A DNA stretch of 64,000 bases from Acidobacteriota bacterium (GTDB lineage Bacteria; Acidobacteriota; Polarisedimenticolia; J045). Positions within the stretch are counted from its first letter, which is position 1, and the number at the start of each line of letters is the position of its first letter. The notes beneath the pieces are model-generated. The model was not told the origin of the DNA. It ran no database searches and saw nothing but the letters and a program-made list of their open reading frames with translations. The stretch lies in NCBI GenBank assembly GCA_030949985.1, contig JAUZRX010000010.1:85148-149147 (forward strand). Reading direction: 5' to 3'. Below, in pieces: positions 6,901-30,616 of this stretch. The translations under genes and the position numbers were made by a program.

Positions 6901-9794
6901 ACGACGACGATCCGCTGTTGAGCGCCACGGCGAAGGCTTCGGTGGCCTGCTCGGGAAGCGTGCAAATCGCCGCCGCGACGATCAGCGGCGGCTGCGACAA
7001 CGACGGTTACCTCGATGCGGGCGAGTCGGTGGACCTGGCGCTGACGCTGGTCAACCCCGGCCGTACGGACCTCCCCGGTGTCCAGGCCCGACTGGTCTCC
7101 TCCCTCGGTGACGTCTTCATCGAACAGGACACCAGTACCTTCGGCACGATCCCCGCCGGAGGCTCGGCGGCGGGAGTCGCCGCCTACCGCCTTTCCCTGC
7201 GAGACGGGGCCGCCCCCCGCGACACCCGCGGGCTGGAGCTGGTGGTGACCACCAGCGACTCTTCCGTCCAGCGGCGAGTGCCCCTGCCCCTGACGGTGGA
7301 GGCCGACGAGCAGCGCACCCAGGCCACCTGGAGCGAGGACTTCACCTCCGCCACGCTGCTCTGCCACGACGGCTCTTCCGACGCGCCCCTGGACTCCTGG
7401 TACTACTTCGACCTGGACCAGAACTGCTCGACCAGCGAGGAGACCTGGCAGTTCTCCTTCTGCTTCGGTGAGCCCATGGCCCTCTTCCCCTCCTGCAACG
7501 GCACCTGGCTGTCGACCAGCAACGAAAAGCACCACCGCCTGGTCTCGCCCCAGGTCGACACGGGCCCCGCGGGCTCACGCACGGTGCTCCAGCGGGTACG
7601 CTTCCTCGAGGACTACCACCTGTTGATCAACGAGGACGGCAAGCTCTGTGACCGCACGGTGGTCGACATTTTCACCAACCGCGACGGGCGGTTGATCTCG
7701 AGCGGCTACTACCGCAACCAGTCCGCCGACGGAAACGACCACCAGGTCGACCTGGACCTGAGCGAGATCGCCGAATTCGAGCTGCCACCGGTGCCCGACG
7801 CGACCCTCTTCCAGCTCATCTTCCATGCCGCCTCCAACGACACCGAAACCGGCGCCTCTTCCTGCGGGGGCTCGTCGGGGGACGAGTACCGCTGGCGGGT
7901 GGACAACGTCGAAGTCGACTACGAAAACATCCAGATCGTCGATGACGCCACGGCGGCCTGCGCTCCGGGCTGCACCCCGCCGGACACGCCCCAGGCCCTG
8001 ACCGCCACCCGGCTCGACACCGGCGGCGTCCTGGTGGCCTGGGACCCTGTCGGCGGCGCGGATCACTACGACGTCTACCGCGTCACCGGCGGCGCGCGGG
8101 TCCTCGCCGGTCGGGTCCAGGCCCCCGACGCGGCCCTGGTGGATCTGCCGGAGGATCCGGCCACCGACACGTGGGAAGTCGAGGCGGTCAGCGCCTCGGG
8201 GCTCTGCGCCTCGGCGGCGGCCTCCACGGGCCTGACCGGTCCCGCGCCCGACTGCCGCCTGGCGCCGAGCGCCCCGGCGAGCCTGGTCGCCACCGATGGC
8301 GCCGGCGCCACCTGCAGCTTGCAGCTCGACTGGGCCGCCGCGACCTCACCGTGCTCGCATCCGGTGGAATACGCGGTCTATCGCTCCACCGAGGAGAACT
8401 TCGTCACCGGGCCGGGAAACCTCCTCGCCCGCACCGCGGCCACGTCGCTGGTGGACGACGCCCTGCTCAGCGGATGGGACGATCAGGGCCAGCCCACCGG
8501 GCAGGTCTACCACTACGCGGTGCGGGCCGTGGATACGGTGACCCAGGTCGAGGGGGACGCGGTCCGGGGCCGTTTCCGCGCCGGCGGACCGCGACAGCTC
8601 GGCACGTGGCTCGACGATGCCGGCGACACTGTTCCGGCGAAGATGACCAGCACGGTCAGCGTCGACGAGAATGACGCGGGGGCGGGCTGGTCCCGCTCTC
8701 CCGTCGCGGTGCGCCACGGGGGCGACTGGTCCTACTGGACCGACGACGAGTCCCTGGGCGACGGGCGCTACCCGCCCCTGTCCTGCTTCTCCCTGGTCAG
8801 CCCCGACGTGGCGCTCGACGGTTCCGGAGGCTCGGAACTGCACCTGTGGGTCGACTACGACATCGAGTACCAGTGGGACGGCCTGGTCATCGAGATCGCC
8901 GTCGACGGCGGCGCTTTCACGCCGATCGACCCCATCGGCGGCTACCCGAGCACCTTCGCCCAGACCGTGGCCCCGCCCTGCGCCGGCGCGGGCGGCGGCA
9001 GCGGATCGTGGATCAACGGCTGTGACTATCCACCGAGCCAGGGGGCCATCACCGGACCCGACGTGGACGGCCTTTCCGGCTGGCAGGAGTTCGTCTTCGA
9101 CCTCTCCGCCTGGGCCGGCAGCGAGCTGCGCTTCCGCGCCCGCATGTCCACCGACTGCGGTACGGACGGGGGCGCGGTGCTCGACGACCTGTCCATCACG
9201 GCGGCCCTGCTGCCCACCTCCTGCCAGGCGGGAGGCTGCTACCCCGCGCCCAGCTTCGCGGGCCTGCTGGAGGCGAAGGACCCCGACCCCCAGACCGCCG
9301 GCGCCATCGAACTGAGCTGGGGCGCGGTGGAGAGCTGGGGCGGCGGCGGCCCGGGCGAGTTCGTGATCTACCGTGACGGCGAGGAGATCGCCCGCGTGGC
9401 GGCGGATCAGACCTCCTACACCGACCTCCAGGCGGAGGCCAACCGGCCCCACCTCTATCAGGTCGTCGCGCGTTCCGGAAGCGGTTGCGACCTGCCCGGC
9501 CCGGCCCCCTCCCGCATCGAGGTGACGGACTGCGGCGACCTGGAGGGTGCGGTGCAGACGGCGGCCCGCCTCGAGGTGCTGCAAGGCGTCTCGACAACCA
9601 ACCTGGTCCTGCGTTCGACGCCCATCGGGGGCGCCGCCCGCTATCGATTCCTCCACTCGGGAGATCCCGCCACCGTGGCCGGATCGACCACCTTCCTCGA
9701 AGCCCCGGCGCCCGAAGCGCGCCATGGGGTGCGGAGCGACGGCCTGAACTATTTCTACCTGGTCGAGGGGCACCCTTCCCCGGCCTGCCCGTGA
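3996..9794 (+). CDS. Giant secreted subtilisin-family (S8) serine protease, 1,932 aa, with P-domain/FN3-like/MAM-like C-terminal domains
   Basis: N-terminal signal peptide (FFCLLVFFAGLALPTRAAE). Catalytic triad motifs IAIADTGVD (Asp), HGTWVAIAAVG (His), GTSFAAPLTAGFAAL (Ser). Downstream repeated beta-rich, Cys-containing domains (e.g. ATRLDTGGVLVAWDPVGGADHYDVYRV). Confidence 0.85.
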   Translation: MRWLAHLPGARRPFGAAVPFFCLLVFFAGLALPTRAAERRRQGPAGYQPPATRQRPIRERPAAPASVNAPPGAAIFPADEPARRQLERLAALRDWILFDGARFDPLLHGPPDLSAFVPVPPGSRSLPATAPRLAVVQFEQAPGPAQRARILAAGAEILSYVPHQAYLVRADAYALATLAGSAGVRWVGRYEPGFKVDRRLGRLARGLALQHPLPGERAESLRLDLLFAPGVDLAGARAAVGRALPGVEVLQGAESSGVTALTLELPLRRLAFDLGALAALEEVVVVEPAGMVDLHNDDAVWIGQSYDVFARQNYSASATIWKHGLLGAGEIIAIADTGVDPDVCWMEDAAGLPPVSSIPAFGASRGPLPVDDTRRKIIAYNLLGSLQDSATAYDVRSGDPHGTWVAIAAVGDNPDNPADENDPVGPHHDASDGMAPLAKLVVEDLGNDSGTLVGLGLPVPRVLDRMFEQEYEAGARISTNSWGSAGNQYDLLSFFTDRMVWNHPDFLIVFSAGNRGPYAGSLDSPGTAKNVVTVGASEARLSPSEDLDPDNLAEFSSRGPTEDGRLKPDLVISGKQLITGDSDLGETGRTCTTREVSGTSFAAPLTAGFAALAREYFRKGFYPTGTENAADGFIPSAALLKAVLIAGALNMTGRGGPDYGPCNIDTCDTLVGLCSNTFTTCQDDEECSLCAGNQGLQCRDDRDCDLSLVQDDAPTTDQGWGRLMLDDALYFDGDSRGLALWDVPRNAGLSTGETWSAEFYVDSTSSDLKVVLTWPDPPSLVASPTFLVNDLDLRLTAPDGTVYWGNAWNPRDRSPFTIEYTQPGVRPLNDPDNVEMVRLAGYTLTPGLWKVEVVGESVPGSGWADLSSRQDFAVVATGPVSTSGGTVSFDKQRYPCSGDVVIEVLDGNRTIAPTVDVTTGSGDAETLTLVDAGGGRFTGSLPLAANTALATSDGILQVADSETLTVTYDDDDPLLSATAKASVACSGSVQIAAATISGGCDNDGYLDAGESVDLALTLVNPGRTDLPGVQARLVSSLGDVFIEQDTSTFGTIPAGGSAAGVAAYRLSLRDGAAPRDTRGLELVVTTSDSSVQRRVPLPLTVEADEQRTQATWSEDFTSATLLCHDGSSDAPLDSWYYFDLDQNCSTSEETWQFSFCFGEPMALFPSCNGTWLSTSNEKHHRLVSPQVDTGPAGSRTVLQRVRFLEDYHLLINEDGKLCDRTVVDIFTNRDGRLISSGYYRNQSADGNDHQVDLDLSEIAEFELPPVPDATLFQLIFHAASNDTETGASSCGGSSGDEYRWRVDNVEVDYENIQIVDDATAACAPGCTPPDTPQALTATRLDTGGVLVAWDPVGGADHYDVYRVTGGARVLAGRVQAPDAALVDLPEDPATDTWEVEAVSASGLCASAAASTGLTGPAPDCRLAPSAPASLVATDGAGATCSLQLDWAAATSPCSHPVEYAVYRSTEENFVTGPGNLLARTAATSLVDDALLSGWDDQGQPTGQVYHYAVRAVDTVTQVEGDAVRGRFRAGGPRQLGTWLDDAGDTVPAKMTSTVSVDENDAGAGWSRSPVAVRHGGDWSYWTDDESLGDGRYPPLSCFSLVSPDVALDGSGGSELHLWVDYDIEYQWDGLVIEIAVDGGAFTPIDPIGGYPSTFAQTVAPPCAGAGGGSGSWINGCDYPPSQGAITGPDVDGLSGWQEFVFDLSAWAGSELRFRARMSTDCGTDGGAVLDDLSITAALLPTSCQAGGCYPAPSFAGLLEAKDPDPQTAGAIELSWGAVESWGGGGPGEFVIYRDGEEIARVAADQTSYTDLQAEANRPHLYQVVARSGSGCDLPGPAPSRIEVTDCGDLEGAVQTAARLEVLQGVSTTNLVLRSTPIGGAARYRFLHSGDPATVAGSTTFLEAPAPEARHGVRSDGLNYFYLVEGHPSPACP

Positions 9795-15525: not shown

Positions 15526-16146
15526 ATGACCTTCGCAGAAATCATCAAGTTCCACCGCGAACGTCTGGAATTGAACAAGAAGCAACTCGCCGAGAAGGTC
15601 GGCGTGACCCAGCCTTACATCGTCCAGATCGAAAACGACGGGAAGATTCCCGGCGACGGGGTCGTCCTGCGGCTGGCCGATTCCCTCGGTCTGGACCGGC
15701 GCGAGTTGCTCTTCGCGGCCTATCGGGCCCGCGCCTCCGACGATACCCGCCATTACTTCAATTCCATCTTCGACGACCTGACGCCTTCCGAGGATTTCAA
15801 CCAACCCTTCATCGAATCCCGCAAGGACCAGTTCGAATCCCCGGATTTCAGCCTGCGTCACCTGAGCACCGCCGTCGACCGCATCTACCAGGTCGCGGAA
15901 CTCAAGGCCAAATCGCCCGACGCTCGATTCTCCGCCCACGCTCACTCGGTGGCCCAGATCTTCGTCGCCGTCGACGGGCGCTTCGAGATCGAGATGAACG
16001 GTGAACGCCTGCTGCTCTCCCCCACGGATCACCCGTCGATCGAGGTGCCGGCCGGCACCGAGCACGGCATCCGCTGCCTGGAGGTGGGTCGCCTGGTCAC
16101 GGTGACCTTGGGCCCGGTGGTGCGGGCGGCGTCTTCTTCTCCCTGA
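15526..16146 (+). CDS. XRE-family HTH transcriptional regulator with C-terminal cupin domain
   Basis: 206 aa; N-terminal HTH_3 (LELNKKQLAEKVGVTQPYIVQIENDGKIP), C-terminal cupin-like beta region. Gene and its upstream intergenic region are markedly lower in GC (about 55%) than the surroundings. Confidence 0.8.
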   Translation: MTFAEIIKFHRERLELNKKQLAEKVGVTQPYIVQIENDGKIPGDGVVLRLADSLGLDRRELLFAAYRARASDDTRHYFNSIFDDLTPSEDFNQPFIESRKDQFESPDFSLRHLSTAVDRIYQVAELKAKSPDARFSAHAHSVAQIFVAVDGRFEIEMNGERLLLSPTDHPSIEVPAGTEHGIRCLEVGRLVTVTLGPVVRAASSSP

Positions 16147-19695: not shown

Positions 19696-19745
19696 AAGCA
19701 CAATATCTAGTGGCTCCCCCCTGCGATCACCCAATATATAGCATT
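19696..19745. promoter_or_regulatory. Tandem NrdR boxes (NrdR operator) upstream of nrdJ
   Basis: Two imperfect palindromes AAGCACAATATCTAGTGG (19696-19713) and CACCCAATATATAGCATT (19728-19745) match the NrdR box consensus acaCwAtATaTwGtgt. Centre-to-centre spacing 31 bp (three helical turns), in an unusually AT-rich patch 280-400 bp upstream of the nrdJ start. Confidence 0.6.
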
Positions 19746-19946
19746 TTCAAGGCTTTAGCCTGCCGGCCGGGAGAAGCGACGCCCGCTGGGGGACCGGCAA
19801 CGGGGAGCCGCCAGCCTCCCCGGGCATTGACAGCGTATCAAAGGCGAAACTGCGAATCCCCCGACACTCCGGCCGGCGCCCTGCCGGCAACAGTCTCCGG
19901 AGATTGGACAGGGAACGCGGGCCATGCTATAACCCGCCGTCCCCGT

Positions 19947-20158: not shown

Positions 20159-20374
20159 TACTCTCTCCCGCCGCCGGCTCATGCATCCTGCACCCGCTGA
20201 CACTTCGCGGCACCCCGGTGTCACGCCGCGTCACTCCATGCCGGCCAGGCTGGCACGCGCGCCAGATTGGCGCGGCCGGCGACACCTGGAGCGGACAGTT
20301 CGCCAGCCCCCGAACCCTTTCTCCTGCGATTGTTTCCATCTCGAAAGAGCCTTTCTGTGGCTTCCGAGGATACC

Positions 20375-20390
20375 TGGCATTAGGTTTGCA
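20375..20390 (+). promoter_or_regulatory. Near-consensus sigma-54 (-24/-12) promoter TGGCAT-N5-TTGCA
   Basis: TGGCATTAGGTTTGCA: GG and GC at the canonical positions 2-3 and 14-15 (consensus TGGCAC-N5-TTGCW). Predicted TSS about 20401. Confidence 0.5.
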
Positions 20391-20400
20391 CTAAAGAGGG

Positions 20401-20456
20401 GCGACTGGCTCCTTTTCCTCTACCAACTTCGACCCCCCGGCGGGGTCGTTTTTTTT
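20401..20456 (+). ncRNA. Candidate tiny sigma-54-dependent transcript (about 55 nt), C/U-rich 5' part plus intrinsic terminator
   Basis: Interval between the predicted sigma-54 TSS and the terminator T-run. No ORF. Would read GCGACUGGCUCCUUUUCCUCUACCAACUU + terminator hairpin. Confidence 0.25.
20430..20456 (+). terminator. Rho-independent terminator (CGACCCC-CCGGC-GGGGTCG + T8)
   Basis: 7-bp GC-rich stem, 5-nt loop, followed by eight consecutive T. Lies downstream of the tRNA-Val/tRNA-Ala pair and of the sigma-54 promoter. Confidence 0.7.
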
Positions 20457-20570
20457 GACCCCGCCCCCAAGGCCCTTCCCGCCGGGACTTTCCGACCCGC
20501 CCCAGGTTCCGGCCCGCCCCCCCATCCGCCGCTCCCCCTTTCTCCACCGGCCTGCACCGCCACCGCTTCA

Positions 20571-20588
20571 CTGTTGCACTCTGCAACG
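20571..20588. promoter_or_regulatory. Palindrome CTGTTGCA-CTC-TGCAACG (copy 1), 21 bp upstream of the STPK-bEBP start codon
   Basis: TGT-N11-ACA / TTGCA-N3-TGCAA dyad of the length typical for enhancer-binding-protein sites. Same motif recurs at 26086-26104. Confidence 0.45.
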
Positions 20589-20608
20589 TCGCGGGGCATA
20601 AGGGGTCC

Positions 20609-23600
20609 ATGAAAAAGCCCCGACAACCACCCTCCCCCGAAGAAGCACCCCGGATCATCGCCGGACGCTACGAAATCCTCGGACGCCTGGGAGCCGGCGC
20701 AGCCGCGCAGGTCTATCGGGTCCGCGACACCGTCGGCGGCGGGACGCTGGCTCTCAAGCTGTTGGCCGGCAGCGATGGCCGCGAGTCCCCGGCCCTGATC
20801 CGGGCCTTCCACCACGAGTTTCAGCTCCTGACCCGCCTGCGTCACCCTCACTTGGTGCAGGTCCACGACTTCGGCGTGCAGCAGCCCGGAGGCGAGGGTG
20901 TGGCGGTGCCCTGGTTCACCATGGACCTGGTTCCCGGTCATCCCGTGGACGAAGTGCTCGGAGCCTCCCCCGACTGGGCCTGCCTGGCCCGGGTCGCCGA
21001 CGCGGTGCTCGATGCCCTCGGCTCCCTCCACGCCCAGGGGCTGGTCCACCGCGACGTGACACCCGCCAACATCCTCGTCGGCCCGGAGATGGAGCGGGAT
21101 CCGCCGCCGGTGTGGCTGATGGACCTGGGGCTGGCCGAAAGCGCGGCCAGCGTCGATGCGGGCCGGATCCGCGGCACCCTGGCCACTGTCGCCCCGGAAA
21201 CCCTGCGGGGCGGAGCGGTCGATGGCCGGGCGGACCTCTACTCCCTGGGCTGTGTTCTCTTCCGCCTGGCCACCGGCGAGGACCCGTTCAGCGGCAACAC
21301 ACCCTTCGAGATCCTGCGGGCGCACCTGTCCACCCGCCCCACCCCACCGCGGCACCTCAACCCGGAGGTGCCTGCCAGCCTGGAGGCCCTGATCCTCGAA
21401 CTGCTGGCCAAGCAACCGGAGCAACGCCCGTCCACCGCCGACGAGGTGCGCCGCCGCCTGGCCGGCCTGTCCGGACGCCACCCCCAGCGCCTGCCTCCCC
21501 TGGCGGAACCCTTGACGCCGGCCCTCGCCGGTCGAGAGCGGGAGATCGAACTGTTCCGCACGGCTCTCGAAGACCTCTCCCGGGAGCGGGGCGCCGTGCT
21601 CCTGGTGGAAAGCGAGCCGGGCATGGGCCGCTCCCGACTGCTCGAGGAGTTCCGGCTGCTGGCCCGTCTTTCCGGACGGCCGGCGCTGCTGATCCGCGGA
21701 GCCGAGGCGCCCCGCCGGCCCTTCGGCCTCGCCGACACCATGCTCGCGCACCTGGCCAGCGGCGGGGGGGGGCAGGCCGACACCCTCCAGGCCCGGGACC
21801 TGGACTCCCGGGCCGAACGGTTCAGCCGCCACCTCGTGGGACGGGAGAGCGTCCTGCTGATCGACGATCTCCATGCCGCCGACGCCGCCTCGGTAACCCT
21901 GGTCGAAGACCTCGCGCGGCGCATCCCCCGGGCGGGACTCCCCTGCCTGATGGTAGCCACCGTGGCGGGCGACGGACTGCCGCTGAAAGACGTGTTGCTC
22001 GAACAGGGTCTGGCCCGGCTGCTGCGACTGCGCCCCCTGGACGAGGCGGCCACCGGCCGACTGGGCGCCACGATGCTGGGGGAGAGCCTGCTGCCCGAAC
22101 CCTGGCAGCGAGCCCTCCACCGGGCCAGCGGTGGCGTGCCCGCCGCAGCAGTGGACATGGTCACGGCCCTGGTGCGCTCGGGCAAGGCCGGGCCGGGTGC
22201 GCCCCTGCCCGAAGCCGTACCGGCAGAACTGGCCGAGGGCCGCCTGGTCTCGCCCCGTTCCACCCAGCGCCTCGATGCCCAGTGGGAGCAGTGGCCGGCC
22301 GGTAGTCGGGCCGTGCTCGCGGCCCTGGCCCTGGCCGAAGGGGAGAGCCTGGACTTCGACGAACTGGAAGCCATCGAGCCCCACTCGGCCACCCACCCCG
22401 ACGATATCGACCTGCTGGTCCGGGAGGGCCTGGTGCGCCGGGTCCGGCGAGCGGAAGGCCGGCTGGGACTCGCCCTGGCCGTCCCCGCCCTGGCCGAAGC
22501 CATCGTCGCCCGCCTGCCGGCCGGGGCGCTCGAGTCGCTCCACCTGCGCCGGGCCGAGTGCCTGGCCGGACAAGAGGGCCGCCAGCTCCAGCAGGCCAGA
22601 CACCTTCTCGCCGCCGGGCAGACCGAGAGGGGAGCCCGCCTGCTGGTGGAAGCGGCCGCCGCGGCCCTGGACGCCGGCACACCCCGGCAGGCCCTCGGCC
22701 TCTGCGACCGGGCGCTGGCCGTCCTGGGGGAGGTGGAAGACGCCTCCCTGCTCCAGCGCCTGCGGCGTATCCGGGCCTCCGCCCTGGCCGCCCTCGGTCA
22801 TCCCGAGGACGCCGCCGCCGAGTACGGCCGGGCCCTCGCCATCGTCGGGGCCGAGACTGCGGAACTCTCCCGCACCCTGCGGGCGGCCGGCACCTTCCAC
22901 GGAGAAACCGGAAAAATCGACACGGCCCTCGACCAGCTCGAACAGGCCCTGGCCCTCAGTGACGAGTTGGGGGACACGGCGGGGGGCGCGGGGGTCCTGC
23001 TGGAGATGGGACGCCTGCTGGCCGCCATGGGCCGCCTGGCGGACGCGGCCGAGCGTCTCGAGACCGGGCTGCGCCAGGCACGACGCGCGGGGCAGGCCCA
23101 CCTCGTCGCCGCCCTGCTGCTGGCCCGCGGAGACCTGGCTCTCCGCGAGGGCCAGCTCGAGCGGGCCCAGGAGTGCTACCGGGAAGCCGAACAGGAATCC
23201 CTCGGCACCGGCTCCACGGCCGGCCGCCACGCCGCCCGGCGCGGTCGCGTGCTGGCCATGGAGGCCTCGGGCCGACTGGGAGACGCCCTCGAAGCCCTCG
23301 ACGACCTGCTGGCCGACGCCCGGCGCACCGGCCACCAGGGACGAGAGGCCGAGGCCCAGGCCCTGACCGGAAGGCTGCTCGGCCGCCTCGGACGCCGTTC
23401 GGAGGCGGTCGGCCGCCTTTCCCAGGCCGCCACCCTCTATCGCAGGCTGGGACGCAGCGCCCCCGCCGCCGAGGTGCTCGCCGAGCAGGCCGAACGCCTC
23501 GGTGAACTCGGGCGCCTGCGCGTCGCCCTGACCCGGGCCGGGGAGGCCCGGGCTCTGGCCCAGGAGGCCCGTTCGGAACCCGCCGCCAACGCCGCGGCCT

Positions 23601-25861
23601 TCGCGCTGGGCACGTTGCACGCCTTCCTCGGTGACGTGGAGGCGGTGCACGAGGCCCTCTCACGCCTGGGCCGGGCCGAAGCCCCCCTTTTCCGGGCCCG
23701 GCGCTCGCTGCTGCTGGGCCGGGCGCACCTGGCGGCGGGCCAGCCCGACCGGGCCCGGGAACTGCTGCAGGAGTGCTCCTTCCTGGCTCGCCGCGTTCGC
23801 CTGTCGGAACTGGAAGTCCAGGGGCTGGTCGGGCTGGCGGAAAGTTACCTCGCCCTGCGCGACGAAGAGCGCGCCGGGCTGGCCCTGAAGAAGATTCGCG
23901 CCGAGGCGGAAAAGGGAGGCCAGGAAGAGATGGTGGCCTGCGCCCGCTTGCTGGCGGCCGAATTGGAACTGGCCCAGCCGGGAGGCGAGATGAGCCTGGC
24001 CCGGGACGAGGCGCTCGCCGCCGCCGAGGTGCTCGCGCGCCGGGAGCGCTCCGACCTGGCCTGGCGGGCCTGGGCCGCCGCCGCCACCGCCTGCCGGCGC
24101 CTGGGGGAGGTCGACGGCGCCGCCCGCTGCGAGCGGGACGCCATCGCCGGCCTCGACGCCCTGCTCGAGGGCCTCCCCGGCCCCCAACGTACCCGCTGGA
24201 GGGCGCAGCCGCGGGTGCGCTCCCTGCTGGCCGCCGCCGGTGCGGAAAACGCTGGATACCGGGCGGCCCCCGAAAGCCAGGCAGCCCCCGAGACCACCCG
24301 GCAGGTCCAGGCCCTCGAACGCCTGCTCGAGATCAACCGGGCCCTCAACTCCACTCTCGAACTCGAACGCCTGCTCGAGATCCTGGTCGATACCGCCATC
24401 GAGCTGACCGGGGCGGAGCGGGGCTTCGTCCTTCTCGAGGAAGGCGGCGACACCGCCGCGGAACTGGCCCGCCGGGAGGGGGGCGTGGACCTGGCCGGCG
24501 AGGAACGCGAGTTCAGCCGCTCGGTGGCGCGGCAGGTGATCCGCGACGACAAGCCCCTGGCCTCCCACGACGCCCAGACCGACGAACGGCTGAGCGACTC
24601 CCGCTCGATTCACGCCCTGCAGATCCACTCGATCCTGGCCCACCCCCTGCGGGTGCGCGGCAAGGTCGTCGGCGCCATCGTCACCGACTCCCGCAAGCCC
24701 ATGGCCCTCTTCGACCAGTCGAGCCAGACCTGGCTTTCCCGCCTGGCGGACCAGGCGGGCATCGCCCTGGCCAACGCCCGCCTGGTCACCCAGCTCCGCA
24801 CCCAGGCCGAGGAGATCCGCCGCCTGAACGAGCAGCTCGCCGAACAGGTGGAAGAGCAGCGCGTGGAGATCCTCGAAAAGCAGTCCAACCTGGAAGTGCG
24901 GTATCGCTACGACTGCATGATCGGCGCGTCGAACCCGATGCAGAAGGTCTACCGGGCCATCGACAAGATCCTGCCCACCGAGATCCCGGTGCTGGTCACC
25001 GGTGAATCCGGTACCGGCAAGGACCTGGTGGCCCGGGTGCTGCATTACAACGGCCCGCGCAGCGAGCAGCGCTTCGTGACCGTCAACTGCGCGGCCCTGA
25101 CCGACACCCTGCTCGAGTCGGAACTCTTCGGCCACCGCAGGGGCTCGTTCACGGGGGCCGACCGGGATCGCAAGGGCCTGTTCGAGCAGGCCCACCAGGG
25201 CACCCTCTTCCTCGACGAGATCGGTGAGATGCCCCTGCACCTGCAGCCCAAACTGCTGCGGGCGATCCAGTTCGGCGAGATCCGCCGGGTGGGGGAAGAC
25301 ACCGACCGCCGGGTGGACGTGCGTATCGTGGCGGCGACCAACCGGGACCTGTCGGAGATGGTCGCCGCGGGCAAGTTCCGCGAAGACCTCTTCTACCGCC
25401 TGGACGTGGCCCAGGTTCACATGGCTCCCCTGCGCGAGCGCCTCGAGGACCTGGGCCTGCTGGTGGGCCACTTCCTCGAGCACGCAGCGAAGAAGACGGG
25501 GCAGGCGCCGAAGTCCATCGAACCCCCCGCTCTGCGTCTTTTCCTGCGCTACGACTGGCCGGGTAACGTCCGGGAACTGGAGAACGAAGTCACCAAGCTC
25601 GCCGCCTTCACCCGGGGCGAAGTGATCACCGAGCTGGACGTGCTGGAAAACGCTGCTTTCCTCGAGCGCGCGCGGGCCCGCCAGGCCGGCCGCCCCCGGG
25701 ACGAGAGCATCAGCACTCTCGAAGCCACCGAACTCGAGCAGATCCGCCAGGCCCTGGCCACCGCCGGAGGTAACCGGACTCGCGCCGCGGAGATGCTCGG
25801 CATCGACCGCTCCACCCTCTACCGCAAGCTCAAGCGCTACGCCGATCGCCTCGACCCCTAG
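20609..25861 (+). CDS. 1,750-aa fusion: Ser/Thr protein kinase - NTPase/TPR scaffold - GAF - sigma-54 interaction (AAA+) domain - Fis-type HTH (enhancer-binding protein)
   Basis: Kinase subdomains (LAGSDGRESPALIRAFHHEF..., HRDVTPANILV, DLGLA, APE-like TVAPETLRG); P-loop-like EPGMGRSRLLEEF and long TPR/helical region; GAF (LERLLEINRALNSTLELERLLEILVDTA...); sigma-54 AAA+ with Walker A GESGTGKDLVARVLH, ESELFGH, GSFTGA (GAFTGA variant) and R-finger region; C-terminal HTH (NRTRAAEMLGIDRSTLYRKLKRY). AAGGGG RBS 7 nt before ATG. Confidence 0.85.
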   Translation: MKKPRQPPSPEEAPRIIAGRYEILGRLGAGAAAQVYRVRDTVGGGTLALKLLAGSDGRESPALIRAFHHEFQLLTRLRHPHLVQVHDFGVQQPGGEGVAVPWFTMDLVPGHPVDEVLGASPDWACLARVADAVLDALGSLHAQGLVHRDVTPANILVGPEMERDPPPVWLMDLGLAESAASVDAGRIRGTLATVAPETLRGGAVDGRADLYSLGCVLFRLATGEDPFSGNTPFEILRAHLSTRPTPPRHLNPEVPASLEALILELLAKQPEQRPSTADEVRRRLAGLSGRHPQRLPPLAEPLTPALAGREREIELFRTALEDLSRERGAVLLVESEPGMGRSRLLEEFRLLARLSGRPALLIRGAEAPRRPFGLADTMLAHLASGGGGQADTLQARDLDSRAERFSRHLVGRESVLLIDDLHAADAASVTLVEDLARRIPRAGLPCLMVATVAGDGLPLKDVLLEQGLARLLRLRPLDEAATGRLGATMLGESLLPEPWQRALHRASGGVPAAAVDMVTALVRSGKAGPGAPLPEAVPAELAEGRLVSPRSTQRLDAQWEQWPAGSRAVLAALALAEGESLDFDELEAIEPHSATHPDDIDLLVREGLVRRVRRAEGRLGLALAVPALAEAIVARLPAGALESLHLRRAECLAGQEGRQLQQARHLLAAGQTERGARLLVEAAAAALDAGTPRQALGLCDRALAVLGEVEDASLLQRLRRIRASALAALGHPEDAAAEYGRALAIVGAETAELSRTLRAAGTFHGETGKIDTALDQLEQALALSDELGDTAGGAGVLLEMGRLLAAMGRLADAAERLETGLRQARRAGQAHLVAALLLARGDLALREGQLERAQECYREAEQESLGTGSTAGRHAARRGRVLAMEASGRLGDALEALDDLLADARRTGHQGREAEAQALTGRLLGRLGRRSEAVGRLSQAATLYRRLGRSAPAAEVLAEQAERLGELGRLRVALTRAGEARALAQEARSEPAANAAAFALGTLHAFLGDVEAVHEALSRLGRAEAPLFRARRSLLLGRAHLAAGQPDRARELLQECSFLARRVRLSELEVQGLVGLAESYLALRDEERAGLALKKIRAEAEKGGQEEMVACARLLAAELELAQPGGEMSLARDEALAAAEVLARRERSDLAWRAWAAAATACRRLGEVDGAARCERDAIAGLDALLEGLPGPQRTRWRAQPRVRSLLAAAGAENAGYRAAPESQAAPETTRQVQALERLLEINRALNSTLELERLLEILVDTAIELTGAERGFVLLEEGGDTAAELARREGGVDLAGEEREFSRSVARQVIRDDKPLASHDAQTDERLSDSRSIHALQIHSILAHPLRVRGKVVGAIVTDSRKPMALFDQSSQTWLSRLADQAGIALANARLVTQLRTQAEEIRRLNEQLAEQVEEQRVEILEKQSNLEVRYRYDCMIGASNPMQKVYRAIDKILPTEIPVLVTGESGTGKDLVARVLHYNGPRSEQRFVTVNCAALTDTLLESELFGHRRGSFTGADRDRKGLFEQAHQGTLFLDEIGEMPLHLQPKLLRAIQFGEIRRVGEDTDRRVDVRIVAATNRDLSEMVAAGKFREDLFYRLDVAQVHMAPLRERLEDLGLLVGHFLEHAAKKTGQAPKSIEPPALRLFLRYDWPGNVRELENEVTKLAAFTRGEVITELDVLENAAFLERARARQAGRPRDESISTLEATELEQIRQALATAGGNRTRAAEMLGIDRSTLYRKLKRYADRLDP

Positions 25862-26085
25862 CAGCCCGCTGAAAAAGCCGACATCCCCGCCCGGGAGCCG
25901 AAGTTCGGCTTCCCGGGTCCACGGTCCGGGTTGTTGTCTTCGGCTCGCCGCCCTGTGCAAAGAAGCTCCGCAAGCGGTTCGAAACCGGCGGTTCGACCGC
26001 CAGGCCTCTCGAGCGCCGGGAGCAGCGTCTTCACCGAAGCGCTCCCGCCGCCGTGAACGCGATCCGGGGCCACCGGCTGACTGTT

Positions 26086-26104
26086 GCAAGCTGCAACAGC
26101 GGTG
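26086..26104. promoter_or_regulatory. Palindrome CTGTTGCA-AGC-TGCAACAG (copy 2; candidate enhancer/UAS) plus extra TGCAAC half-site at 26115-26120
   Basis: Perfect 8+3+8 dyad. Centre lies about 111 bp upstream of the -24 element of the sigma-54 promoter at 26205, the typical UAS-to-promoter distance for bEBPs. Confidence 0.5.
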
Positions 26105-26204
26105 GGGAGTGCAACGGTGCAGTGGAGGGAGACACAGCCCCGCATGCTGCCCGAAATTGTTCGTATTAGTTGTAAATAGGCCGTTTTCAGGCTAGCGACG
26201 AAAC

Positions 26205-26220
26205 TGGTACGGTGATTGCT
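26205..26220 (+). promoter_or_regulatory. Sigma-54 (-24/-12) promoter TGGTAC-N5-TTGCT
   Basis: TGGTACGGTGATTGCT with GG/GC at canonical positions; one mismatch to TGGCAC. Located in the lowest-GC stretch of a 600-bp ORF-free region; predicted TSS about 26231. Confidence 0.55.
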
Positions 26221-26230
26221 CTATGTCAGG

Positions 26231-26460
26231 GCGCGAAGGCGGAAAGACCCGACAAGGGGTGGCCGGAGGGTAGGAAAAACCCAGTTGCGACCCACGCAAC
26301 CGATGCAGCGCCCAGCCCGATGCCAAAGGGTCGAAAGACCCAAGCCCCCTAACCTTCGGTACCCCTTGTCGGGGCCTACTTGACAGCAAGCGCACGCCGA
26401 ACCGGCTCGAAGATAGTTTCCTTGGTACAGAAAGCCCGCCTCTCCCCCTGGCGGGCTTTT
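26231..26460 (+). ncRNA. Candidate sigma-54-dependent structured RNA (about 230 nt): sRNA or terminator-containing leader of the downstream HK operon
   Basis: No credible ORF. Long-range helix GACCCGACAAGGGG/CCCCUUGUCGGGG enclosing hairpins GUUGCG-ACCCA-CGCAAC and GGGUC-GAAA-GACCC (GNRA tetraloop); repeated GAAAGACCC motif; ends in an intrinsic terminator. Confidence 0.35.
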
Positions 26461-26463
26461 CTG
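26431..26463 (+). terminator. Rho-independent terminator (AAAGCCCGCC-loop-GGCGGGCUUU + UUUUCUGUGUG)
   Basis: 10-bp stem, 9-nt loop, T-rich tail. Sits about 50 nt upstream of the sensor kinase start codon, so could also act as an attenuator. Confidence 0.65.
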
Positions 26464-26509
26464 TGTGTTCGTAGCTGTTTCGAGGGCGCCGGAGCGCTAT
26501 CATCCGGCG

Positions 26510-29500
26510 ATGATGAACCAGCGCCCCGGCACGCGGCCTTCACCGCGCTCGGCCGTTCTCCTGCCGGCGGCCCTGGCGCTGGCCTGCGGCCTGTTGCCCT
26601 ACCGCCGGGCGGCCTGGGCGGCCGCCGCGCTGGTCCTGTGGGCGCTGGTGTTCCTGCTGGCGACCTGGAGCCGCCAGCCGCGGTCGCGCCTGCTGCCGGC
26701 GGTGCTCCTGGTGCTCGGCGGCCTGGCCACCACCCCCGAATGGCGCCCGGTTCCCGGGCCCGACCATTTCCTCGCCCCGGCCGCCGAGCAGGTGCAGCAG
26801 CGATGGCGGGAGCAGGTCGAAATCCTCGACGCGGCGGTGGCGCCGCCCCCCCCGGCCGGTGGCGACTACGCCTGGCTCGACCAGCGCCGGCAGAGCCTCG
26901 GAGAGCGTGGCGGCCTGACGGTGCTGCCCGAGGGGGGAGGCCCGCCGCTGGGCTGGTCCGGCTGGACCACGCCCCTCGCCGCCGGGGAACGAGCACGGCT
27001 CGCGGCGAGCCTCGCCCCCGGCCCGGCCCTGATGGTCCTGCGCCGCGGCCTGAGCCTGCGCCTGGTCTGCGCCCGGCGCTACACCGACCCCGCCCGCTGG
27101 CTGGTGGCCGAGATCGCACTTCCCCCGGAGCCCGCCCCGGGCCCCCTGGGCGGAGGGCTCGGGCCCCACGTGCAGGCGCGGCTGCGCTGGGAAGCCGTGG
27201 GCGAAGGCATCCAGGCCGAGATCGGCGGTACCGACGAGGGGACCGCCCCCGCCTTCTGGTCCATGATCCCCCTCCAGGCTCCCGACGGCAGCCTGATGGC
27301 CCGGGCGACCCTGACCCAGTCCCCCCCCGAGGTGATCGCCCGGGACCACGCCCGCAGGCGCCAAGGCCTCTTCGGCCTGCTCGGCACCCTGTGGCTGATC
27401 GCCACCGCCATGGCCGGCGGGCGCGGCGGCGCCCTGCGCCTGGCGGTGGCGCGAGGGGTCTGGCTGGTGGCCCAGCCGGCGCCGCTGCTGGGTCTCGGCA
27501 GCGCCGCCACGGCGCCCTGGCTCCCGGAGACGCTGCTCCCAACCCACCCATGGGCCCGCTGGCTGGCCGAAGGGCTGGTCGGCCGGCCCCTGGACGCGGC
27601 CCTGACGGGCCTGGCCCTCGCCGGCGTATCCGCCCTGGTGGGCCTGCCTCTCTCGCCCCGACGGCGCCGCGGGATCGGCATCGGCGGACTGGCCCTGGCG
27701 GGGACCGGCCTGGGCCTGGTCCATCGCCTGACCCTCGCCACGGAACTCTCCCCGGGTGCGGTGGTGCTCCCCGAAGGAGGCGGCGTGGTGGCAGCGCTGC
27801 TGATGGTCGCCCTGGCCGCACTCCCCTGGGCGGGTTTTCAGCTCGCCCTGCGCTGCCTCGGCAGCGCCGTGGGAGGTCGCACATGGCTGGCCGCGGCCCT
27901 GCTGGCGGGGCTGACGGCAGGCTCCGTCCACGCCCTGACCCTGCCCGCGGCCGGGCGCCAGAGGGCCGTGCGCGAGTTGGCACCGGAGCTGCTGCAGCGG
28001 GGATGGACCTGGGAGAACGCCCTGCTCGAAACCCTGGCCCTGGCCGTTCCTCCCGACCGCCGGCCGGTGCTGGCCCGGGAGCGGGATGCCATCGACCTGT
28101 GGTGGAACTCGCCCCTCGGCCGGATGGGCCTGGCGTCGGGGGTCTGGAAATACGACGCCCGGGGGCGCGTGGTGGACCGCTTCATCACCGGCGTTCCCCC
28201 GGTGGACCCCGAACCGCGCCTGGTGGCCGCCGACCTCGAAGACGGCCCGACCGGCCCCTTTCCCCGGCGCTTCGATGCCCCCGAAGTGGAGACCCAGCGC
28301 TTCGTCGAGGGCCAGTTCCGGCTGGTGCGGGCGGAGGTCCTGCGTCCCGACGGTGGAAGCTGGGTCGCGGCCATCCTGGCCGAGCCCGGAAACATCCCCT
28401 CCCGCCGAGCCGACGACCCTCTCGGCGCGGCGATCCGGGCCGAGACCGACAAGCCGATCCTTCCCCGCCGGGGGGCCCTCGAGCCCCGGCTCGCCTGGTT
28501 CGACCCGGCGGGACATCTTCTCCACTCGGAGTTGGAGGCCGGCCCTCCCGCGCCCCTCGCCCCCCCCACCGCTCCCCGCTGGCGCCGGATCCACGAGCCG
28601 GGCTCCCGCGGCTACGACGTCTACGAGGTGGCGGACGCCACGGGGACCCTCTGCCTGGCAGTCGTGCCGCCGGGGCTGCTGGAGATGGCGGCGATTCCCG
28701 TGGGCTGGGCGGTGAGCCTGCTGGCCGGTGCCCTGCTGACCCTCGCCCTGCACCGTATCGAGCAGGATCCCCGTGGCGCGGTGCTGGGCGTCTTCCCCCG
28801 CCTGCGGGCGGCGGCGGGGCGCTTTGGCGTGCAGGTCGGCCTGGTGCTGGTCGTCGCGGGCCTGGCTCCACTGTTGGCCCTGGCCGGGGCGGGGCGCGCG
28901 GCGGCCTCGGCCCAGGCCCATCAGCGCCTGACCTCCGACGGTCGGCGCACGGCTCACTTCGCCCGTCGCCTGGTGGAGGACTACCTGGCCCTGGGGGAAG
29001 GCGAACCCCTGGCAGCCACCGACGCGGAACCCATTGCCGCCTGGCTGGCCCGCACCCTGGGCGAGAACCTCTTTCTTTGGCGTGACGGTGCCCTCGCCGC
29101 CGGTAGCCGCAGCGACCTGGTCAGAGCCGGCCTGTGGCCCGAACGACTGCCCGGGCGCACCTGGCGCGAGCTGACCCTCGGCCGCCGTCCCCTGCTGATC
29201 CGGCGGGAGGGCCTGCTCTCGGCGGCCGCCTCGGGCGCGGCGGTGGTCTACAGTCCCTACCGGGGGCCCGACGGCAACCCCGGTGTGCTGACCATTCCTC
29301 TCGCCCGCGCAGGCCGGCGCTATGCCGAGAGCCTGGCCGACATGGACCGGGCGCTGCTGGTCAGCACGGCCCTGCTGCTGGCCCTTTCCTTCGCCCTGCT
29401 GCGTCCGGCCACCCGTCGGCTGGTCCGCCCCCTCTCCCAGCTCGAGCAGGCCACCGGCCGCCTGGCGGCCGGCCACTTCGACTCGCCGATTCCCGTGGCG

Positions 29501-30616
29501 GGCTGCGAAGAGACCCGCTCGCTGGGTCGTGCTTTTCGCCTGATGGCCCGTTCCCTCGCCCGGCAGCAACGGGGACTCGAACGTCGGCGGGCGGCGATCG
29601 AGACCATCATCGCCAGCATCCCCCTGGCCGTGATGGCCGTCACCCGGGACCGCAGGGTCTGGGCCGCCAACCCGCGGGCGGGACAGCTCCTGGGAGTCAC
29701 CCCCGCCGAAGCGCTGCGGCTCGGGAACGATCCCCTGGCCCGCACGGTGGAGCGCCTGGTCGGCCAGGGCGGCGAGCGCCGGGAGAGCCTCGAGATCGAC
29801 GAGGGGGACCGGCATCGCCACCTGCGGGTCTCCGCCCTCGACCTGCCCGGACTGGAAGAGGGACGCGGCCTGCGGCTGATCGTCATCGAGGACCTGACCG
29901 ACGCGGTGCAGTCCGAGCGGCTGGCGGCCTGGGCCGAAATGGCCCGGCGCATCGCCCACGAGATCAAGAATCCCCTGACGCCGATCAGCCTGATGGTCTC
30001 CCACGTCCAGCGCCTGCTCGAGCGCCGGGACCCCGGGCTCGAGCAGAGCCTGACCCGCGCCCTGGCCACCATCGACGAACAGGTGCAGGTGCTGCGGGAG
30101 ACCGCCCGGGAGTTCGCCGACTACTCCCACCTGCTCCACGCCAGCCTGGAACCGGTGGACCTGGCCCCCGAGGTGCGTACGTGGCTGGCGGCCTACGCCA
30201 TGGCGGAAGATGACGCCACGCCGCTGGAGATGGACGGACCCGCGAACCTGCCGCCCCTGCCCGCCGACACCCGGTTGCTGCGCCGGGCGGTGGTCAACCT
30301 GGTGGACAACGCCCGGGCGGCGGCCGCGGAGACCGGGGGCCGCGTGCGGGTCCGTTGGGGGGTACGGGATCAACCGGCGCCGGCGATCTGGATCCGCGTG
30401 GAGGACGACGGCCCGGGCATCGAACCCGGCACCCTGGGGCGTCTTTTCGAACCCGACGTCACCACCCGGGAGACGGGCAGCGGGCTGGGTCTGCCCATCG
30501 CCCGCCAGGCGGTGGAAGCCCACGGCGGCACCATCGAGGTGGACTCGAGCCCGGGCCGGGGCTCACGTTTCACGGTGGTGCTGCCCCGCCCCGCCGGGTG
30601 CGAGGAGGAGAGTTGA
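26510..30616 (+). CDS. Large membrane-anchored sensor histidine kinase (multi-TM N-terminus, HAMP/PAS, HisKA, HATPase_c)
   Basis: Start at ATGATG 26510 (MMNQRPG...) rather than the GTG 26465 of the track. Hydrophobic N-terminal segments; H-box AHEIKNPLTPISL (NtrB/AtoS-type), N/G boxes VVNLVDNARAA, DDGPGIEP, GSGLGLPIARQAVEAHGG. Confidence 0.8.
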   Translation: MMNQRPGTRPSPRSAVLLPAALALACGLLPYRRAAWAAAALVLWALVFLLATWSRQPRSRLLPAVLLVLGGLATTPEWRPVPGPDHFLAPAAEQVQQRWREQVEILDAAVAPPPPAGGDYAWLDQRRQSLGERGGLTVLPEGGGPPLGWSGWTTPLAAGERARLAASLAPGPALMVLRRGLSLRLVCARRYTDPARWLVAEIALPPEPAPGPLGGGLGPHVQARLRWEAVGEGIQAEIGGTDEGTAPAFWSMIPLQAPDGSLMARATLTQSPPEVIARDHARRRQGLFGLLGTLWLIATAMAGGRGGALRLAVARGVWLVAQPAPLLGLGSAATAPWLPETLLPTHPWARWLAEGLVGRPLDAALTGLALAGVSALVGLPLSPRRRRGIGIGGLALAGTGLGLVHRLTLATELSPGAVVLPEGGGVVAALLMVALAALPWAGFQLALRCLGSAVGGRTWLAAALLAGLTAGSVHALTLPAAGRQRAVRELAPELLQRGWTWENALLETLALAVPPDRRPVLARERDAIDLWWNSPLGRMGLASGVWKYDARGRVVDRFITGVPPVDPEPRLVAADLEDGPTGPFPRRFDAPEVETQRFVEGQFRLVRAEVLRPDGGSWVAAILAEPGNIPSRRADDPLGAAIRAETDKPILPRRGALEPRLAWFDPAGHLLHSELEAGPPAPLAPPTAPRWRRIHEPGSRGYDVYEVADATGTLCLAVVPPGLLEMAAIPVGWAVSLLAGALLTLALHRIEQDPRGAVLGVFPRLRAAAGRFGVQVGLVLVVAGLAPLLALAGAGRAAASAQAHQRLTSDGRRTAHFARRLVEDYLALGEGEPLAATDAEPIAAWLARTLGENLFLWRDGALAAGSRSDLVRAGLWPERLPGRTWRELTLGRRPLLIRREGLLSAAASGAAVVYSPYRGPDGNPGVLTIPLARAGRRYAESLADMDRALLVSTALLLALSFALLRPATRRLVRPLSQLEQATGRLAAGHFDSPIPVAGCEETRSLGRAFRLMARSLARQQRGLERRRAAIETIIASIPLAVMAVTRDRRVWAANPRAGQLLGVTPAEALRLGNDPLARTVERLVGQGGERRESLEIDEGDRHRHLRVSALDLPGLEEGRGLRLIVIEDLTDAVQSERLAAWAEMARRIAHEIKNPLTPISLMVSHVQRLLERRDPGLEQSLTRALATIDEQVQVLRETAREFADYSHLLHASLEPVDLAPEVRTWLAAYAMAEDDATPLEMDGPANLPPLPADTRLLRRAVVNLVDNARAAAAETGGRVRVRWGVRDQPAPAIWIRVEDDGPGIEPGTLGRLFEPDVTTRETGSGLGLPIARQAVEAHGGTIEVDSSPGRGSRFTVVLPRPAGCEEES

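Follow-up and report, generated by a model that had tools for sequence, protein, structure and literature searches.

Organization and conservation of the locus

The stretch of DNA analysed here, called the window below, is 64,000 nucleotides (nt) of contig JAUZRX010000010.1 (assembly GCA_030949985.1) from an Acidobacteriota bacterium. A gene for a structured RNA of ~230 nt sits in it between the gene of a kinase-fused sigma-54 activator and a histidine-kinase operon. The activator is a bacterial enhancer-binding protein (bEBP), whose Pfam domains run in the order Pkinase, AAA_16, TPR, GAF, Sigma54_activat (E = 1e-69), AAA_lid_14 and HTH_8. After the histidine-kinase gene come an SBP_bac_5 protein, a permease and a serine/threonine protein kinase (STPK) with a double zinc ribbon. 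Both proteins that flank the RNA gene have matches at 100% identity among NCBI entries from metagenome-assembled genomes. A preliminary description of the region, made from the letters of the window, had proposed a palindromic enhancer, a sigma-54 promoter and a terminator-ended RNA of ~230 nt. All the elements that it listed (dyad, sigma-54 element, helices, hairpins and terminator) are present, with small coordinate offsets only, and enhancer, promoter and RNA are kept as one unit in 15 loci. Its starting position, 26086, falls within the dyad, which is real and occupies 26081-26099.

Other copies of the RNA were gathered through orthologues of both flanking proteins and with a two-anchor DNA pattern, GGCGGAARGNCCCGA-N38-68-GYGCCCAGCC. 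The pattern was derived from the first five copies and run on species-representative genomes and metagenomes. Fifteen distinct copies were obtained, the one in the window included; all are from Acidobacteriota metagenome-assembled genomes and none is from a cultured strain. Dyad, promoter, RNA and terminator stand in the same order in all 15 members. The covariance model of the RNA (R1) scored the 15 copies at 102-142 bits and their reverse strands at 24 bits or less, with one copy per locus. Chance matches to the pattern (3 of 17 in genomes and 4 of 5 in metagenomes) lay in coding sequence from unrelated bacteria or on contigs of unknown origin, scored 17 bits at most and were set aside. In the comparison with related genomes, for which the preliminary description had called, structure, palindrome and promoter were found conserved at homologous loci. 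The activator orthologues adjoining the RNA are 51-91% identical, and the flanking kinases of different clades only ~40-55%.

Searches of Rfam 15, at the gathering threshold for the entire window and at E <= 10 for the region, returned only tRNAs and sub-threshold terminator-like matches. No paper in the literature searched describes this RNA or any sigma-54-dependent small regulatory RNA (sRNA) in Acidobacteriota. As judged from sequence comparison, the RNA gene is real, conserved and previously undescribed, and its transcription is predicted.

A distant clade, in which the bEBP is ~36% identical, keeps the dyad, the sigma-54 promoter, an RNA of ~250 nt, the terminator, a sigma-70 promoter, an open reading frame (ORF) of 143 amino acids (aa) and the kinase, in this order (L008 and L009, 15431-15965; L010, 15446-15920; L033, 10596-11050; L034, 11365-11830). 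The RNA of this clade differs in sequence, with a conserved CGGA..GGACCCCCUCC and C-rich strands. Its homology was considered and not adopted: model R1 gave no match, and it is treated as analogous or too diverged.

Sigma-54 promoter and the predicted start site

The -24/-12 element TGGTACGgtgaTTGCT of the window has the fixed 10-nt GG/GC spacing and the TGGCAC-N5-TTGC type of sequence that mark sigma-54 promoters. The pattern TGGYACG-N4-TTGCW has two matches in the window against 0.01 expected, and TGGCAY-N5-(T/G)TGCW is present in 15/15 loci. The distance from the GC of the -12 element to the invariant GCGAAGG of the RNA is 13 nt in 13 of the 15. Since this distance is fixed, conservation begins at the predicted start site.

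Enhancer dyad and its probable activator

A dyad with the core GTTGCA-N3-TGCAAC was found upstream of the promoter in every one of the 15 loci. With up to three mismatches allowed, it has two matches in the 64-kb window where 0.10 would be expected. From the dyad centre down to the GG of the -24 element there are 116 bp in the window, a distance seen in 9/15 loci; the remaining distances are 113, 114 and 117 bp (three loci), 105 bp (one) and 127 bp (two). As 105 and 127 bp are whole helical turns from 116, the spacing fits DNA looping from one face of the helix. The range of 105-127 bp also agrees with the ~80-150 bp of activator sites that depend on helical face. In 14/15 loci, the 200 nt before the RNA contain two or three TGCAAC half-sites. 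Between enhancer and promoter the DNA is AT-rich, and strings like its CCGAAAnnGTTCG and GTTTTC were seen by eye to recur upstream of the RNA in other loci. The DNA may bend at this spacer.

In every one of the longer loci (16-25 kb), the dyad occurs only at the RNA promoter and ~10-20 nt before the bEBP start. This two-site pattern holds in the main clade and in the clade whose bEBP is 36% identical. Because the dyad is confined to these two places, the bEBP is assigned as the cognate activator, and autoregulation is proposed. The 1750-aa protein is thus the probable activator of the RNA, with its binding to the dyad read from the second site. Its sequence suits such a role, as it carries Walker A and B motifs, ESELFGH, an arginine finger, a GSFTGA variant of the GAFTGA loop and, in HTH_8, a DNA-binding domain. 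The preliminary description had named an adjacent or divergent bEBP as the activator. The second dyad copy supports that assignment and the gene is adjacent, but it is not divergent, since it lies upstream on the same strand.

The second dyad is kept in both clades, in all loci that reach the bEBP start, and lies at the same place in L002, L004-L008, L010, L033 and L034. It overlaps the would-be -35 of a promoter whose -10, CATAAG, stands 6-7 nt before the start codon, an arrangement that suggests autorepression and a leaderless bEBP mRNA. In residues 1-300 of the activator (20609-21500), HRDVTPAN replaces HRDLKPxN and DLG replaces DFG; the kinase-like domain could be that of an atypical kinase or of a pseudokinase.

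Structure of the RNA

The 145-nt core of the 5' domain folds at -70.3 kcal/mol (z = -4.85), and 0/200 shuffled sequences fold as well. A multi-helix junction architecture is retained in every member (helices in Table 1). On an unbiased MAFFT alignment, pairing in P0, P1 and P2 is 91.7%, against 37-55% when the partners are slid. Cells changed on both sides number 23, compared to 8.9 in shuffles, and 0/500 shuffles reach 23. Six pairs show changes on both sides; alignment column pair 35-136 appears as CG, GC, UA and AU. Compensatory changes are also seen in P2b (A-U, C-G, U-A) and in P4 (GGGUC/GACCC, GAGUC/GACUC, GGGCC/GGCCC), the extensions and length of which vary. These changes are those of a structured non-coding RNA; the 15 sequences represent ~5 clades, and the independent covariation events are modest in number. 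Around 45 positions are invariant in the alignment, and they are concentrated in the unpaired junction strands (GCGAAGGCGGAAAG, AAACCC, GCAGCGCCCAGCCC).

No ORF is conserved across the family members, as no frame stays open in all of them. Indels in the alignment are of 1, 2, 5 and 14 nt, none a multiple of three, and the RNA does not behave as protein-coding sequence.

A pseudoknot between GGCG and CGCC (5' strand with GCGCCCAG) can be drawn, but every position in it is invariant, so that it has no covariation behind it. Some minimum-energy folds pair the 5' GGAAAG with the CU-rich tail, but by eye this pairing is not maintained across the clades. The 'repeated GAAAGACCC' motif of the preliminary description did not hold up: its second copy corresponds to the loop plus the 3' strand of a hairpin that is variable and dispensable. 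The repeat is absent as such from other family members and is taken as coincidental.

At the 3' end, a hairpin of the form CCCGC(C)-[C-rich loop]-G(G)CGGG is found in 15/15 loci. In the window, the GC-rich hairpin is followed by a U-run, as in Rho-independent terminators. A simple terminator scanner passes over it, since its loop has 9 nt and the limit of the scanner is 8. In L011, directly past the terminator (~2250-2330), three tandem copies of GGGGACAGGCGACTTAG are followed by an inverted copy (GGGTGCCTGTCCCCC).

CU-rich tail and sibling RNA

The linker between P1 and the terminator is 55-90 nt long and poorly conserved, and always contains a CU-rich motif, which in most clades reads CGAA-N3-CUCCUUUUCC. 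This motif resembles the 3' end of 16S rRNA and would pair with ribosome-binding sites of the AAGGAG type.

A second small RNA, with a sigma-54 promoter of its own, is predicted upstream of the activator gene. This sibling is conserved in L002, L004, L005, L006, L007 and L014, and has an altered form in the distant clade. Each locus has exactly two copies of the decamer CTCCTTTTCC (CUCCUUUUCC), one in the tail of the large RNA and the other in the sibling. The similarity between the two, over ~18 nt, reaches CGAA-N3-CUCCUUUUCC. Compared with Rfam, the sibling gave a best match below threshold (suhB/MmgR, 18 bits against a gathering score of 41). TGACA-N-TGTCA and GTGAC-N-GTCAC palindromes lie upstream of the sibling promoter (window 20196-20236; L004 ~9700-9735; L006 ~1425-1445). 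Because they differ from the dyad, the sibling is probably under another activator than the large RNA.

Targets were sought near the RNA genes. In seven loci, the perfect complement of the shared decamer led only to the sRNAs themselves. RNAduplex comparison of three conserved single strands with the starts of the bEBP, kinase, binding-protein, permease and STPK genes in five loci gave no consistent z-score. Feedback pairing on the bEBP mRNA, as in Qrr and luxO, was considered as well and is unsupported by the RNAduplex energies.

A third sigma-54 element, TGGCACGggggTTGCT, with a predicted RNA of ~90 nt, lies on the minus strand of the window (16286-16170), between convergent genes for HTH_3/Cupin and class II ribonucleotide reductase. 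This RNA would fold into a long hairpin with imperfect pairing (GCGGACGGGAGACCG...CGGGUCGGGCUCUCCCGU) and has a U-run. L002, L004 and L005 share both its promoter and its hairpin, and no Rfam family matches it. The class II ribonucleotide reductase gene is preceded, at 19700-19760 on the minus strand, by two palindromes, TATATATTGGGTG and CCACTAGATATTGTGC, which may be NrdR boxes.

Table 1. Features of the RNA locus and its surroundings (positions in the window; a point in the strand column marks features without strand).
Feature	Position	Strand	Sequence or form	Remarks
Activator (bEBP) gene	20609-25861	+		1750 aa; upstream of the RNA, co-directional; Pfam domains
Upstream activating sequence, perfect dyad	26081-26099	.	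CTGTTGCA-AGC-TGCAACAG	core GTTGCA-N3-TGCAAC; read in sequence
Third half-site	26110-26115	.	TGCAAC	read in sequence
AT-rich enhancer-promoter spacer	26150-26189	.	CCGAAAnnGTTCG and GTTTTC, recurring	GC 0.50-0.56, ~0.7 nearby
Sigma-54 -24/-12 element	26205-26220	+	TGGTACGgtgaTTGCT	GG 26206-07, GC 26218-19, 12 nt apart
Transcript (predicted)	26231-26463	+		~230 nt; 5' end from promoter geometry, 3' end from terminator
Conserved 5' domain	26230-26375	+		covariance model 136 bits on +, 24 bits on - strand
P0 mini-hairpin		+	(U/C)GC-GAAG-GCG	3-4 bp; then invariant single strand GGAAAG
P1 long-range helix	26248-26261 / 26360-26373	+	CCCGACAAGGGGUG / UACCCCUUGUCGGG	10-14 bp; family form CCCGACARGGGG / CCCCUUGUCGGG
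P2	26263-69 / 26353-59	+		5-9 bp; fold
P2b	26271-74 / 26348-51	+		3-4 bp; coaxial stack with P1 and P2, closing the multiloop
Multiloop strand	between P2b and P3	+	AAACCC	
P3 hairpin	26284-89 / 26295-300	+	GUUGCG/CGCAAC	family: GUUGC with GCAAC or GCAGC
Invariant multiloop strand	26305-24	+	GCAGCGCCCAGCCCGAUGCC	
P4 hairpin	26328-26341	+	GGGUC-GAAA-GACCC	variable; missing in L017 and L011
Tail motif	26417-26425	+	UUUCCUUGG	candidate anti-Shine-Dalgarno seed; tail alignment
Intrinsic terminator	26428-26463	+	CAGAAAGCCCGCC-loop-GGCGGGCUUUUCUG, then UUUUCUGUGUG	C-rich loop; -24.8 kcal/mol, z = -6.2
Putative -10 of leaderless kinase mRNA	26498-26503	+	TATCAT	6 nt before kinase ATG (26510), no Shine-Dalgarno
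Sensor kinase gene	26510-30616	+		1368 aa; HAMP/PAS/HisKA/HATPase; downstream of the RNA
Sibling small RNA locus	20375-20457	+		two tRNA genes on one side, the bEBP gene on the other
Sibling sigma-54 promoter	20375-20390	+	TGGCATtaggtTTGCA	
Sibling transcript (predicted)	20400-20457	+		~58 nt; unpaired CUCCUUUUCCUCUACCA at 20409-20425; terminator with U8
Second dyad copy	20571-20589	.	CTGTTGCA-CTC-TGCAACGT	20 nt ahead of the bEBP start; probable autoregulation site

Stand-alone RNA or leader of the kinase operon

The preliminary description had left open whether the transcript is a trans-acting sRNA or a leader of the downstream operon. The evidence leans to the former, and the RNA probably is a stand-alone, trans-acting sRNA of ~230 nt transcribed by sigma-54 polymerase. 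In L011, the next real gene after the RNA is a convergent methyltransferase gene; no kinase is present, and no gene follows on the same strand for more than 1.5 kb. In L004, synteny with close relatives stops right after the hairpin, and no kinase match is found downstream. L001 has a different gene after the RNA. In the distant clade, a conserved sigma-70 promoter, GTTTGACA-N17/18-TACGAT or TATCCT, stands directly after the terminator. The loci L011 and L004 that have no downstream kinase, the break of synteny after the terminator, the motif shared with the sibling and the sigma-70 promoter of the distant clade thus favour an sRNA. The roles of sRNA, leader and ligand- or protein-binding RNA are not mutually exclusive.

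If the RNA were a cis-acting leader, the sigma-54 promoter would drive the operon of kinase, ABC transporter and STPK genes, the hairpin would be a regulated attenuator, and the short RNA would be a by-product or have a second function. We regard this as rather unlikely, though it has several observations on its side. The kinase gene, or another same-strand gene followed by it, lies 30-95 nt past the hairpin in 12/15 loci. A scan of 25800-26600 for sigma-70-like promoters found no match, and no consensus promoter of this type was seen there. The invariant junction nucleotides are typical of sensing leaders. In L013, the Shine-Dalgarno sequence of the kinase is ~40 nt past the terminator, which leaves no room for a promoter; read-through, and hence a leader role, is likely at least in this locus.

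Besides the promoter that the distant clade has between terminator and next gene, and the loss of a downstream partner in L011 and L004, the kinase starts themselves speak against a leader. Most are without a Shine-Dalgarno sequence, and TATCAT or TATGAT (CTATCATCC or TATGATCC) stands 6-8 nt before such an ATG in nine loci, placed as for a leaderless mRNA. This box may be the -10 of leaderless transcripts. Boxes of this kind lie at 15600-15611 and 19565-19583 in L002, where the substrate-binding protein gene also has one (CTATCAATCC). The HTH_3/Cupin gene at 15526 and other nearby genes do have a Shine-Dalgarno sequence. Riboswitches and attenuators act always in cis and have a competing expression platform, a combination that was not found here: no antiterminator pairing is supported by variation, and the terminator is clear of P1, at a distance of 55-90 nt.

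The 5' domain could instead be the working part, as a sensor or aptamer, a decoy titrating a protein or a scaffold for signalling proteins, with pairing by the tail secondary or absent. The ~45 invariant positions in junction strands, maintained while helices vary and the kinase is only ~40-55% identical, agree with a binding RNA, as does the junction architecture kept in all members. No known aptamer or protein-binding RNA family matches, however, GGA-type repeats are not present in the numbers of CsrB-like sponges, and the sibling has only the tail in common with the large RNA, an indication that the tail is what works in both. Such a role is judged slightly less probable still than that of a leader. 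That there is no functional RNA at all, the motifs having arisen by chance in GC-rich intergenic DNA (which folds well and carries long open frames, one of them a 103-aa ORF on the minus strand that overlaps) or belonging to a hidden small protein gene, is hardly credible given the whole unit in 15 loci, the compensatory changes, the strand-specific model scores, the fixed promoter geometry, the lack of a common open frame and the indels out of frame.

Several observations also weigh against a stand-alone sRNA that pairs through its tail and is controlled by the adjacent bEBP. The U-tract after the hairpin is poor in L007 and L015. The window's own clade has only UCCUUGG and not the full shared decamer, and the predicted unpaired probability of the tail motif is moderate (0.24-0.98). 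No convincing target was found among the neighbouring genes. Simple seed pairing through the tail leaves unexplained why the most conserved unpaired nucleotides are those of the 5' domain. L001 (closed genome CP070706.1, 5314-5727) keeps nearby only a 137-aa C-terminal remnant of the bEBP. The remnant consists of the AAA lid and HTH_8 and is separated from the RNA by two unrelated genes, and the dyad of this RNA is degenerate (GTGGCAAGTTGCAAC). Finally, the protein that binds the dyad, transcription and its dependence on sigma-54 and the bEBP, the transcript ends and the trans mechanism are all predictions from DNA.

Comparison with known systems

In Vibrio, qrr1 is sigma-54-dependent and activated by bEBPs (PMC10162802). 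The Acidobacteriota RNA is like the Qrr/LuxO system in having a -24/-12 promoter for an sRNA, an upstream bEBP site and an activator gene next door. Apparent feedback control of the activator and a seed common to sibling sRNAs are further points of likeness. To Qrr there is no similarity in sequence or structure. Qrr RNAs are ~100 nt long with four stem-loops, whereas the RNA described here has ~230 nt and a branched 5' domain of 145 nt. Unlike LuxO, the activator is without a receiver domain and has the kinase-like/STAND/TPR/GAF region as its sensor. The RNA gene is co-directional with and downstream of the activator gene, not divergent from it; the upstream palindrome of the sibling is a different one, and the bEBP mRNA gave no sign of feedback pairing. 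With no Rfam match at the gathering threshold or at E <= 10, the RNA does not belong to the Qrr family. The favoured reading is that of an activator-linked regulatory sRNA, which would be Qrr/LuxO-like in its logic and unrelated in sequence. The likeness to Qrr/LuxO or to Pxr drawn by the preliminary description stands as regards this logic, and not as regards family membership.

GlmY and GlmZ of Enterobacteriaceae, with GlrR (QseF), are sRNAs whose genes depend on sigma-54 and a bEBP and have upstream activator sites (PMC7073468, PMC4152352). Here too, a related pair of sRNAs would work in one circuit, and a protein-binding role is plausible for one partner. The sequences are unrelated to GlmY/GlmZ, and the two Acidobacteriota RNAs have only ~18 nt in common and differ fourfold in length. 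We know of no RapZ-like partner for this pair. Matches to the GlmY/GlmZ models of Rfam were found neither at the gathering threshold nor at E <= 10.

Pxr of Myxococcus is a developmental regulatory sRNA with a sigma-54-type promoter, from a phylum with many Ser/Thr kinases and bEBPs. It differs in phylum and size, and is not known to have an adjacent dedicated activator with such a site. The region had no match at E <= 10 in Rfam, a library in which the presence of a Pxr model is unconfirmed. MmgR (suhB, alpha-r8), the CcsR 'cuckoo' RNAs and RsaE/RoxS have several single-stranded motifs, rich in C or in C and U, that are complementary to ribosome-binding sites. The large RNA shares this type of motif with the anti-Shine-Dalgarno sRNAs and differs from them in promoter type and architecture; its match to ar14 is sub-threshold (17.5 bits against 58.8). 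Riboswitch and attenuator leaders are similar in having a structured domain with invariant junctions and then a terminator shortly before an operon. Unlike them, the RNA has a dedicated enhancer-dependent promoter and a terminator clear of the closing helix, and some of its members are without a downstream gene.

Discussion

The elements of the unit, their conservation, their spacing and the covariation in the RNA are observed. From these, the following course of events can be proposed. The activator would bind the dyad and the extra half-sites ~116 bp upstream of the -24 element, reach the closed promoter complex by DNA looping and bring about its conversion to the open complex. On the second dyad, over its own promoter and start, the same protein would regulate its own synthesis. 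The transcript would start 1-3 nt before the invariant GCGAAGGCGGAAAG and fold into the 145-nt domain, whose multiloop, closed by a long coaxial stem, holds highly conserved single strands rich in C. After this would come a tail of loose structure, with the CU-rich, anti-Shine-Dalgarno-like motif, and then the strong hairpin and U-run. The CU- and C-rich single strands could pair in trans with purine-rich ribosome-binding regions of mRNAs. The large RNA would work alongside the sibling sRNA from the other side of the activator gene, with which it has a motif in common and from which it differs in the upstream palindrome.

A more speculative idea, to which we give less weight than to either the leader or the binding RNA, is that the 5' domain senses a small molecule or a protein through its invariant junction strands and so gates the exposure of the 3' anti-Shine-Dalgarno module, which would be a copy of the short sibling. 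If true, a gated sRNA of this kind would join a transcriptional signal, received by the STPK/GAF activator and passed on via sigma-54, with a second signal at the RNA level. It would be a riboswitch-like gated sRNA in a phylum for which no regulatory RNA circuit was found in the literature searched.

Acidobacteriota are abundant, mostly uncultured bacteria of soils and sediments, and the RNA lies outside every Rfam family. The circuit can be read from sequence as an operator, a phased enhancer-dependent promoter, an unusual activator with a kinase-like/STAND/GAF sensing region instead of a receiver domain and at least two sRNAs that share a motif. The covariance model and the sequence anchors can be used for annotation of metagenomes, and the predicted site for mapping of the regulon. 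As three sigma-54-driven small RNAs are predicted within 10 kb, riboregulation through sigma-54 may be common in this lineage.

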